64,000 bases of DNA from Candidatus Aenigmatarchaeota archaeon (GTDB lineage: Archaea; Aenigmatarchaeota; Aenigmatarchaeia; PWEA01; JACQIF01). The position numbers and the translations under genes are program-made. Shown in pieces: positions 35,791-37,376 of this stretch. The notes under the pieces are model-generated. The model searched no databases and was not told where the DNA came from. It worked only from the letters and a program-made list of their open reading frames with translations. The stretch lies in NCBI GenBank assembly GCA_016432325.1, contig CP066684.1, positions 416,001 to 480,000 of the forward strand. Reading direction: 5' to 3'. Numbering within the stretch: position 1 is the stretch's first letter; each line of letters starts with the position of its first letter.

Positions 35791-36807
35791 ATGGTCAAAC
35801 GTTCACAGAGGCCGAAAACCGTGAAAGTCAAGGAGAAGGCGAATCAGATGGTTGGCCGCGCCAAGACTGCCTCGAAAGTGATGCACGGCAAGTTCAAGTG
35901 CCCGGACTGCGGCTCTTCTCACATGCTCGAAGACTCAAGCCGCGGCGAGGTTTCTTGCGGCAACTGCGGACTGATTCTCGAAGAGAACATAATCGATCTC
36001 ACCCAGGAATGGCGCGCGTTCGACCAGGAGCAGCGCTCCAAGCGCGCGCGCACGGGCGCCCCGCTGACGCACACGAAGCACGACAAAGGCATGATAACCG
36101 AGATAGGCCGAGGCTCTGGAGAGCTTTTCAAGGTCTCCGCACGCAAACGCGCGCAATATTACAGGCTCCGCAAGTGGCAGAAGCGTCTCATCGAAAGCAA
36201 AGACCGCAACCTGTCGTTCGCTCTCTCAGAACTGCAGCGTCTCGTTTCGTTCCTCGGACTGCCGAAGAACGTCCACGAGGAAGTTGCAAAACAGTACGAG
36301 AAGGCCGTTGACAAGGGGCTCGTGCGCGGCCGCTCGATGGAGAGCGTCGTCGCGGCTCTCCTATACGCGATATGCCGCGAGTACAAGACGCCCCGAACGC
36401 TGGACGAAATCACGGATGCTTCTGGCGTGGACAAGCGCGAGATCGGGCGCACGTACCGTTATGTGTGCAGAGAGCTTGAGATACGCATACTTCCCTCGCA
36501 GCCCGAAGACTACATACCGCGCTTCGCCACGATGCTCGGCTTGTCTGACAAGGTGCAGGCCGGCGCGATGGAAGTTCTCAGGAAGGCGAAGAAATACGAT
36601 CTCGCCTCTGGTAAGGGTCCGACCGGCGTGGCCGCGGCCGCTTTGTACATCGCCGCCGTGCTCGCAGACGAGAAGCGCACGCAACGCGAGGTCGCCGACG
36701 TCGTCGGCGTCACAGAAGTCACGATACGCAACCGCTACAAGGAGATAGTGGACAAGCTCGGCATCGAAGAGGAGGTCGAGAAAAAAATCAAAGAGGATGA
36801 AGATTGA
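35791..36807 (+). CDS. tfb: Transcription initiation factor IIB
   Basis: CPDC..CGNCG zinc ribbon, EWRAF, R.G.P, two cyclin repeats (GRS, GK.P.G.AAA, VTEVTIRNRYKE). Confidence 0.98.
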   Translation: MVKRSQRPKTVKVKEKANQMVGRAKTASKVMHGKFKCPDCGSSHMLEDSSRGEVSCGNCGLILEENIIDLTQEWRAFDQEQRSKRARTGAPLTHTKHDKGMITEIGRGSGELFKVSARKRAQYYRLRKWQKRLIESKDRNLSFALSELQRLVSFLGLPKNVHEEVAKQYEKAVDKGLVRGRSMESVVAALLYAICREYKTPRTLDEITDASGVDKREIGRTYRYVCRELEIRILPSQPEDYIPRFATMLGLSDKVQAGAMEVLRKAKKYDLASGKGPTGVAAAALYIAAVLADEKRTQREVADVVGVTEVTIRNRYKEIVDKLGIEEEVEKKIKEDED

Positions 36808-36869
36808 TTTTTTTCACATTTTCCGCCATGCGTAAAATCGAGAAGAAGATTAAGGAAGATGAAGATTAG
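36775..36869 (+). repeat. Synonymously recoded duplication of the last 10 tfb codons plus stop
   Basis: 36775..36807 VEKKIKEDED-TGA versus 36837..36869 IEKKIKEDED-TAG. Confidence 0.9.
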
Positions 36870-37083
36870 GAAGGAGTTTCCATCCGTGGGGATAAACATG
36901 ACTGGACATGTCTTTAATCTGGACGAGGAAGTGAAAATCGCCAAGAAGGTCGGACTTGGAGAACTAGAAGGTATGATTCAATCGATGATAAATGACAATA
37001 CAGTCGAAGCGGCATGGGACCTATACAGGGCGCGCAGTATCGCTTTCCAAGAACTTTCTGGCAAGGCTTACGTTCCTCAGTGA
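36859..37083 (+). CDS. Small hypothetical protein (AT-richer; start may be 36898)
   Basis: ORF track; GGAG RBS-like sequence upstream of second ATG. Confidence 0.5.
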   Translation: MKIRKEFPSVGINMTGHVFNLDEEVKIAKKVGLGELEGMIQSMINDNTVEAAWDLYRARSIAFQELSGKAYVPQ

Positions 37084-37124: not shown

Positions 37125-37376
37125 ATGACGCGCTCTGACTTTGAAGGATTGGGTCCCGAAGAGATAAAGAAATTCGACGCCGTTCTTGACAGACATCGAA
37201 TACCAGAAGACTGGGGCAATCCATTCGTCGTACACAAGATAGGAGAAGACGTCTACCTCGTAGGCAAACTTTCTTACTACGCAGGAAGCGGGCCCTCTAC
37301 GTGCAGAGGCATCGACAAAGCGATAGACACATTGGATAGCATAGCCGCGCCCGTCGGAACTAAACAGAAAGCTTAA
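37125..37376 (+). CDS. Small hypothetical protein
   Basis: AGGTGG RBS before ATG 37125. Confidence 0.55.
   Translation: MTRSDFEGLGPEEIKKFDAVLDRHRIPEDWGNPFVVHKIGEDVYLVGKLSYYAGSGPSTCRGIDKAIDTLDSIAAPVGTKQKA

Follow-up and report, generated by a model that had tools for sequence, protein, structure and literature searches.

The last codons of tfb, the gene for transcription factor B (TFB) of a Candidatus Aenigmatarchaeota archaeon, are written twice, the second copy lying downstream of the stop codon and behind a hairpin whose downstream arm is an inverted piece of the gene end itself. The gene lies in a stretch of 64,000 nucleotides (nt), positions 416,001 to 480,000 of the forward strand of contig CP066684.1 (assembly GCA_016432325.1), the whole of which we call the window and number from its first letter; positions outside it are given as genome positions. 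On balance, we regard it as somewhat more likely than not that a small hairpin unit of ~62 nt was inserted at the 3' end of tfb with duplication of its target. Selection exposed by deletions between the copies, our preferred route, may have kept the second copy in its present form. The features concerned are as follows.

35791–36807, plus strand: tfb (transcription factor B), 338 residues, from the list of open reading frames (ORFs), with Pfam TFIIB repeats and zinc ribbon.
36775–36807, plus strand: copy 1, the working tail VEKKIKEDED followed by TGA, from the sequence.
36837–36869, plus strand: copy 2, the spare tail IEKKIKEDED followed by TAG, from the sequence.
36780–36815, plus strand: hairpin 1, from RNA folding and a scan for perfect-stem hairpins.
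36808–36814, plus strand: a run of seven T residues (T7) directly after the tfb stop, from the sequence.
36808–36836, plus strand: the 29-nt gap between the tail copies, searched with blastn-short.
36818–36838, plus strand: a weak second hairpin of 5+3 bp, −3.1 kcal/mol, from energy evaluation.

The codons of copy 1 are GTC GAG AAA AAA ATC AAA GAG GAT GAA GAT TGA, and those of copy 2, one period of 62 nt further on, are ATC GAG AAG AAG ATT AAG GAA GAT GAA GAT TAG. The copies are identical at 25 of 33 nt, and all 8 mismatches are transitions: five lie at synonymous third positions, one at the first position of the V/I codon and two in the stop codon (TGA/TAG). The preliminary description of the window had placed the doubled tail at 36775–36807 and 36837–36869 with 29 nt between and had remarked that, besides V/I, the differences are silent even in the exchange of one stop for another; both observations are borne out. 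The repeat begins at the V/I codon and stops exactly at the stop codon, with unrelated flanks on both sides, and no third copy of the tail was found genome-wide, copy 2 being the sole other one. Copy 1 is contiguous with tfb and is presumably the end in use. Relative to tfb, copy 2 occupies the −1 frame; it lies inside a mini-ORF of 13 codons that opens with the ATG at 36828 and has the product MRKIEKKIKEDED, and it would be outside ordinary translation. The tfb frame also runs open beyond its TGA into an ORF at 36859–37083, for 92 codons without a further stop, which we take as coincidence given a one-in-three chance for the frame.

The rest of the gene is that of an ordinary TFB. The protein has a TFIIB zinc ribbon and two cyclin repeats, the last of which ends at residue 321 (Pfam), and it is 72–86% identical to its counterparts in order-level relatives. 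Its closest homologue (P0001, 95% identity) has the tail EKKIKEEEPI and starts at the equivalent of tfb residue 20. Two in-frame starts 57 nt apart are present in tfb (MVKR... and MVGR..., within 35791–35860), the second of which, at 35848, is where this homologue begins; the 19 codons before it might represent either a duplicated gene start or an extension of the N-terminus. In 20 order- and class-level relatives, the tfb tail is single and of the form VEKK(V/I)(K/R)E(E/D)(E/D). Among 371 class-level genomes scanned for the pattern, this one alone gave the twin tfb tail; the other matches stood at the level of a reversed-pattern control and had, judging by the matched strings, a different layout. 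Two metagenome pattern scans for closer relatives gave no match, and a scan of a genome collection gave only one genome, G001, the only one of the same genus, which is without tfb and trm1.

The duplication of the tfb tail is not a product of chance. When the last 10 residues of each of 3917 ORFs were sought in all frames of the next 150 nt, tfb scored 9/10, the ribosomal protein gene rpl15e 8/10 and one ORF 7/10, with the rest at 6 or below. A second scan was anchored on stop codons, identical residues being counted backwards from two nearby stops; its counts fall steeply (~17000, 1200, 100, 5), and just three genes stand out, tfb with 9 residues and rpl15e and a histone gene with 7 each. The preliminary description, which had proposed a genome-wide search for peptide-level tail repeats, had named as grounds for giving up its interpretation that recoded matches might commonly arise by chance in shuffled controls. 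They do not: in 20000 shuffles of the 200 nt downstream of tfb, the top score was 7/11 against 10 observed, and random peptides drawn from the K/E/D/I/V composition of the tail reach 9/10 at 1.1e-5 per window searched.

The gap between the copies is related to the gene end that it follows. The segment GAAAAAAATC (36780–36789) is the reverse complement of GATTTTTTTC (36806–36815), a relation that the preliminary description had recognized at the junction and that extends to a stem of 12 bp, in which GAAAAAAATCAA (36780–36791, within copy 1) pairs with TTGATTTTTTTC (36804–36815) at −9.4 kcal/mol. The remaining tail codons form the loop (36792–36803), whereas the 3' arm, an inverted copy of the target, holds the TGA and the T7 run. 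Termination at oligo-T is established in Archaea, and the T7 run is likely to be such a signal for tfb. Beyond hairpin 1, the minimum-free-energy fold offers an alternative to the second hairpin, in which 36817–36824 pairs with 36854–36861 inside copy 2. No Rfam family was found for the hairpin region. A census of perfect-stem hairpins in the genome listed 128, 2 of them with a downstream copy, and was too strict to be of use.

The stem also bears on codon usage, from which the preliminary description had argued that the copy inside the gene is the incoming one. AAG is indeed preferred (68% of Lys codons in the genome; 9 AAA to 22 AAG in the tfb body), and copy 1 is rich in AAA, with three AAA where copy 2 has three AAG. 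As evidence for direction, however, this is weak because the A run pairs with the T7 run in the stem: the case for an incoming copy 1 rests on three AAA codons, for which pairing with T7 accounts equally well. Both copies, moreover, end in the rare series GAT-GAA-GAT, GAT making up 28% of the Asp codons of the genome.

Two further genes of this genome have the same arrangement. The first is rpl15e (genome 394896–395474, minus strand; Pfam Ribosomal_L15e), 21 kb before the start of the window. At genome 394834–394925 (minus strand; locus L022), SQNRHYG-TGA is followed 64 nt on by SQNRHYG-TAG, with five of the seven codons spelled differently and two hairpins between the copies. The second is a histone gene (genome 653294–653497, minus strand; Pfam archaeal histone) upstream of aIF5A, in which IKLVAKR-TGA is repeated 51 nt on with two synonymous changes, 22 of 24 nt being identical (653245–653320, minus strand; locus L023). 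At both loci, the first stop is followed directly by the opening bases of the duplicated tail in inverted form, and the stop codon therefore lies inside a hairpin. Thus tfb, rpl15e and the histone gene have in common a layout in three parts (copy, inverted piece, copy), with gaps of 27–31 nt. The frame of copy 2 is −1 at tfb, +1 at rpl15e and 0 at the histone gene, so no single frameshift or readthrough fits all three loci. In rpl15e and the histone gene, the two copies have different last sense codons, and both genes stand between ancestral neighbors (rnp3, aIF5A) with no island. The preliminary description had already seen in tfb an extension, from pilins to an essential gene, of a recoded-duplication layout; that part of its reading holds, the layout being one that occurs at other gene ends, and so does the view that the duplication is recoded codon by codon and associated with an insertion.

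The rpl15e locus can be followed into the same-genus genome G001, which keeps the layout at an offset of 62 nt (L154:2879-2993). Between the two genomes, hairpin 1 of rpl15e has three compensatory pair changes and hairpin 2 has one, while the loop of hairpin 2 has diverged. Apart from its stop, the spare copy differs between the genomes only at six third positions; the chance that six differences among 21 sense positions would all fall on the 7 third ones is ~1.3e-4 (hand calculation). The spare rpl15e copy of G001 lacks a start codon, and an in-frame TGA stands just before it; the histone spare copy of the present genome has no start codon either. From this alignment of two species, we conclude that the unit is old and vertically inherited and that its hairpins are maintained. 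The spare copy of rpl15e has evolved as if it were read, to judge from the placing of its substitutions.

Other gene ends in the two genomes show related features. The histone orthologue of G001 has a single, longer tail, IKLVSKPWSG. An ORF at genome 687314–687775 (minus strand; locus L024) ends in FDLLPKMVKG-TAG, and 7 nt behind it stands FRLLPKIVSG, which shows several synonymous differences and has no stop. In G001 (L114:160-330), a gene end FKRYGV-TGA lies within a perfect 10-bp hairpin, which recurs base-identical 119 nt downstream, with a different second hairpin behind each copy.

The best reading of the tfb unit is that it belongs to a class of hairpin inserts of 50–64 nt with duplicated target, which are common in this genome at gene starts and ends. 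The hairpin tip GAAAC-N3-6-GTTTC occurs 54 times genome-wide, compared with 6–13 for control palindromes, and 11 of these sites lie between direct repeats (at least 12 of 15 positions matching, spacing 39–64 nt), compared with 4 of 300 random sites. The clearest of these cases are duplicated gene starts, including their ribosome-binding sites. At genome 711838–711920 (minus strand), for example, MKNWPDL and a stop are followed by a hairpin and then by MKNWPDLLVFF..., which continues into the gene; the copies agree at 23 of 24 nt, and the twin start looks like a young duplication. Because near-identical duplications such as this one and that of the histone gene (22/24 nt) exist, the copies must arise in place rather than arriving already diverged. 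The rpl15e unit holds a GAAAC tip, whereas the tfb unit shares the period and the target-derived hairpin but is without the tip. Within the window, GAAAC-tip sites lie at about 25141, 51568 and 51598. We found no published description of such hairpin inserts with duplicated target in the literature on DPANN hairpin insertions.

How could a spare gene end keep its peptide if it is not translated? We envisage that a hairpin-forming unit of ~62 nt was inserted at the tfb 3' end and duplicated the gene end, and that hairpin 1 with its T7 run probably ends or stabilizes the tfb transcript. It is well known that sequence between direct repeats can be deleted and that a hairpin lying between the repeats stimulates this. 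After such a deletion, an essential gene would end in copy 2 and its stop. A lineage in which copy 2 is damaged would lose its deletion descendants, and the peptide of copy 2 would be kept; the selection coefficient would equal the deletion rate, because it is those descendants that are lost, and selection of that size can act in large populations. The spare copy would thus have been exposed, now or until recently, to selection for the same peptide. This deletion route fits the observations that the frame of copy 2 is irrelevant, that the repeat ends at the stop, that no start codon is needed and that three essential genes are concerned.

Several points weigh against this explanation. Deletion-exposed selection requires deletion rates above 1/Ne, where Ne is the effective population size, and we know of no enzyme that makes such units. 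The codon constraint on the spare copy is read from the rpl15e pair and not from tfb, where five synonymous changes to one conservative change speak only weakly against a decaying relic (P ~0.1, an estimate). The stability of hairpin 1 is unexceptional (z = −1.2 relative to dinucleotide shuffles, and not above A/T-rich shuffles), and the second tfb hairpin is weak (−3.1 kcal/mol). Finally, the tfb gap is unique in the genome, blastn-short giving just chance-level matches of 10–12 nt and no dispersed repeat, and it is without the GAAAC-tip hairpin that marks the dispersed family.

Other routes to copy 2, or to its constraint, were considered and rejected. Frameshifting or readthrough from tfb into copy 2 is contradicted by the differing frames at the three loci and by the stop that intervenes in G001. 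An independent mini-ORF from the ATG at 36828 has no counterpart in the rpl15e copy of G001 or in the histone copy of the present genome, which are without a start codon. A strict bulge-helix-bulge intron (two 3-nt bulges with a 4-bp helix between; only this strict motif was considered) would have to match the offset, and no motif of 62, 64, 62 or 51 nt was found at the four loci; a 14-bp bulge-helix-bulge candidate at 36862–36913 was judged to be chance and would destroy the start of ORF A, the next gene downstream. Transcriptional slippage on the A7 run gives A6 and A8 products that, on reading the sequence, both terminate before copy 2. An antisense ORF at 36735–36944 was discarded as a source of constraint because its codons are exact reverse complements, which puts the wobble positions out of register.

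That the spare tails are nonetheless in use, with a fraction of the ribosomes passing over the 51–64-nt unit or a fraction of the transcripts or genome copies losing it, strikes us as unlikely. For tfb itself, some ribosomes would hop the hairpin to the matching codon, or the 62-nt unit would be removed from some mRNAs or genome copies; the protein would then be the same from either copy, and purifying selection would act directly on each. We find this form of the idea distinctly improbable. It would account for the codon-level conservation of the rpl15e spare copy in two species despite the TGA in G001 and the missing start, and removing a segment of the offset length does restore the frame at every locus. 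With a hairpin at the site of take-off, a stop codon and a gap some tens of nucleotides long, the layout also recalls T4 gene 60 and mitochondrial byp elements (PMC8211752). However, no strict bulge-helix-bulge motif of the offset length was found at the four loci, and rpl15e and the histone gene each have copies with different last sense codons. Hopping would bring no gain because copy 1 has its own stop and yields the full protein. As for precedent, our literature search found no description of translational bypassing in archaea, and the review PMC8211752 mentions bypassing solely in its general introduction, with phage T4 and yeast mitochondria as examples and no archaeal case in the passages found.

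Behind the duplicated tail, two small ORFs follow.

36898–37083, plus strand: ORF A, 61 residues, from the ORF list; it occupies the place of a Cys-rich gene of the relatives.
37125–37376, plus strand: orphan ORF B, 83 residues, from homologue searches.

The preliminary description had pointed to AT-richer small genes here, correctly: the GC content of ORFs A and B is 0.44–0.50, as against 0.57–0.60, and neither has a Pfam family. No homologue of ORF B was found in 40 relatives, and it matches just itself among 5.8 billion proteins. In relatives of the same order (loci L002–L020), tfb is followed by a conserved Cys-rich protein of 55–80 residues (...DLVK(I/V)RKPVV...CFG.RCFW..G.CP), a neighbor that tblastn did not find in this genome. 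As to an island present in some relatives and absent from others, the comparison covered order-level relatives, in which the tail is single and another gene follows. Both ORFs lie beyond the two tail copies and are not bounded by them.

One could suppose that the resident tfb allele gave way to a foreign one, or only its 3' end to a foreign end that brought a terminator hairpin along, and that the resident's last ten codons were left behind as a scar. Homology would have anchored the exchange on the left, and the junction on the right would have been illegitimate or based on short homology. Under such homeologous replacement, both copies would look coding because each was the working end in a different lineage. 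The synonymous-only differences, the unlike stop codons, the atypical AAA of copy 1 beside the preferred AAG of copy 2, and a region behind tfb that is unlike that of relatives (orphan ORFs where the Cys-rich gene was not found) would all follow. We nevertheless hold replacement to be decidedly unlikely. Three loci share one geometry, with a gap of 27–31 nt that begins with the inverted target; the near-identical young duplications show an origin in place; and the rare series GAT-GAA-GAT closes both tfb copies. The rpl15e gap is homologous in two species and co-varies between them, which points to vertical inheritance.

We think it very unlikely that the copies are held together by an RNA switch, in which the inverted piece would pair with either copy 1 or copy 2 and so couple tfb translation to termination or to the next ORFs; a ribosome finishing tfb would free the piece, and the copies would stay alike as its shared pairing partners. 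The energies permit such an exchange, since 36804–36815 pairs with 36842–36853 at −6.6 kcal/mol, compared with −9.4 kcal/mol for copy 1, and the four in-stem differences are all compatible with G-U wobble. The similarity of the copies, however, spans the loop part and the stop, which pair with nothing. In addition, three of three differences lie on the 4 third positions among 12 (P ~0.02, hand calculation), although pairing with the U run would tolerate others, and the inverted piece of rpl15e matches copy 2 at only 9 of 12 positions.

The preliminary description itself had read the repeat as an attL/attR-like scar of an element integrating at the tfb 3' end, which would be driven by an integrase and have the orphan ORFs as its cargo. 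The AT-richer orphan ORFs behind copy 2 would suit such an element, and integrative elements of Archaea and Bacteria may, as is generally known, bring a replacement 3' end for their target gene. We now judge this highly improbable. The copies enclose just 29 nt, so there is no element between them, and since the tail occurs just twice in the genome, with no third copy, the orphan ORFs are not bounded as cargo. Tyrosine recombinases (PF00589) were found only at 289 kb and 783 kb, with tfb at 452 kb, and the neighboring ORFs are without an integrase domain. Moreover, rpl15e and the histone gene show the same layout with no islands, and at rpl15e, it is inherited in the sister species. Two other sources of small inserts were looked for: Cas1 (PF01867), as for a CRISPR-like ectopic spacer integration, had no match in the genome while positive controls matched, and the Y1 (HUH) transposase (PF01797), as for REP/RAYT or IS200/IS605-type elements, had none either. 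Weakest of all, and with next to no probability, is a chance resemblance in a purine-rich K/E/D tract, for which the low complexity of the tfb tail might speak but against which stand the ORF scans, the shuffles, the composition null and the non-repetitive tails of the other two loci (SQNRHYG, IKLVAKR). Taken as a whole, the earlier interpretation is thus partly supported.

Three essential genes in an archaeon with a minimal genome carry their last codons a second time, respelled, behind a hairpin, and the out-of-reach copy at rpl15e has kept the meaning of every codon since the two species parted. One possibility is that a process at the level of DNA regularly swaps gene ends, which would be a new, harmless way for tiny inserts to enter essential genes and would let selection act on untranslated DNA. 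The alternative is non-standard decoding at these gene ends; if the spare tails are used, theirs would be the first element of the bypass or excision type known from the ends of archaeal genes. Either outcome would bear on gene calling in DPANN archaea, on the spread of hairpin elements and archaeal introns, and on the population genetics of weak selection.

Several known systems invite comparison with the tfb unit. Like the T4 gene 60 and Magnusiomyces mitochondrial byp cases of programmed bypassing (PMC8211752), it has a short non-coding hairpin stretch with a stop at its start and matching codons on both sides, and the byp-type elements are small and mobile, too. In those cases, however, the frame continues after landing and the bypass is needed for the protein, whereas tfb copy 1 is complete. 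In the C-terminal displacement arrays of Rhs and CdiA, start-less copies of gene ends are likewise kept behind a working gene, but the orphan ends encode different toxins, which makes for diversity, and the spare end of tfb encodes the same peptide. Integrative elements that supply a surrogate 3' end (islands in tRNA genes or gene ends; e14 in icd of E. coli) leave the gene intact and a displaced, silently different copy downstream; their copies flank kilobases of DNA and an integrase, in contrast to 29 nt and no integrase at tfb. The miniature palindromic insertion YPAL/RU-2 of Yersinia (De Gregorio et al. 2006, via PMC2229807) belongs to a kind with long, variable target duplications beside dyad symmetry; it duplicates up to 26 bp of its target and is, like the tfb unit, a small, protein-less, hairpin-forming insert at or beside hairpins, terminators and gene ends. 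YPAL is an element of 168 bp with a conserved family sequence, whereas the tfb insert has 29 nt, is unique and is partly inverted from its own target; its duplication measures 33 nt and ends exactly at the stop. The closest published analogues are the palindromic miniature inverted-repeat transposable elements with long target duplications and the elements that carry surrogate gene ends.

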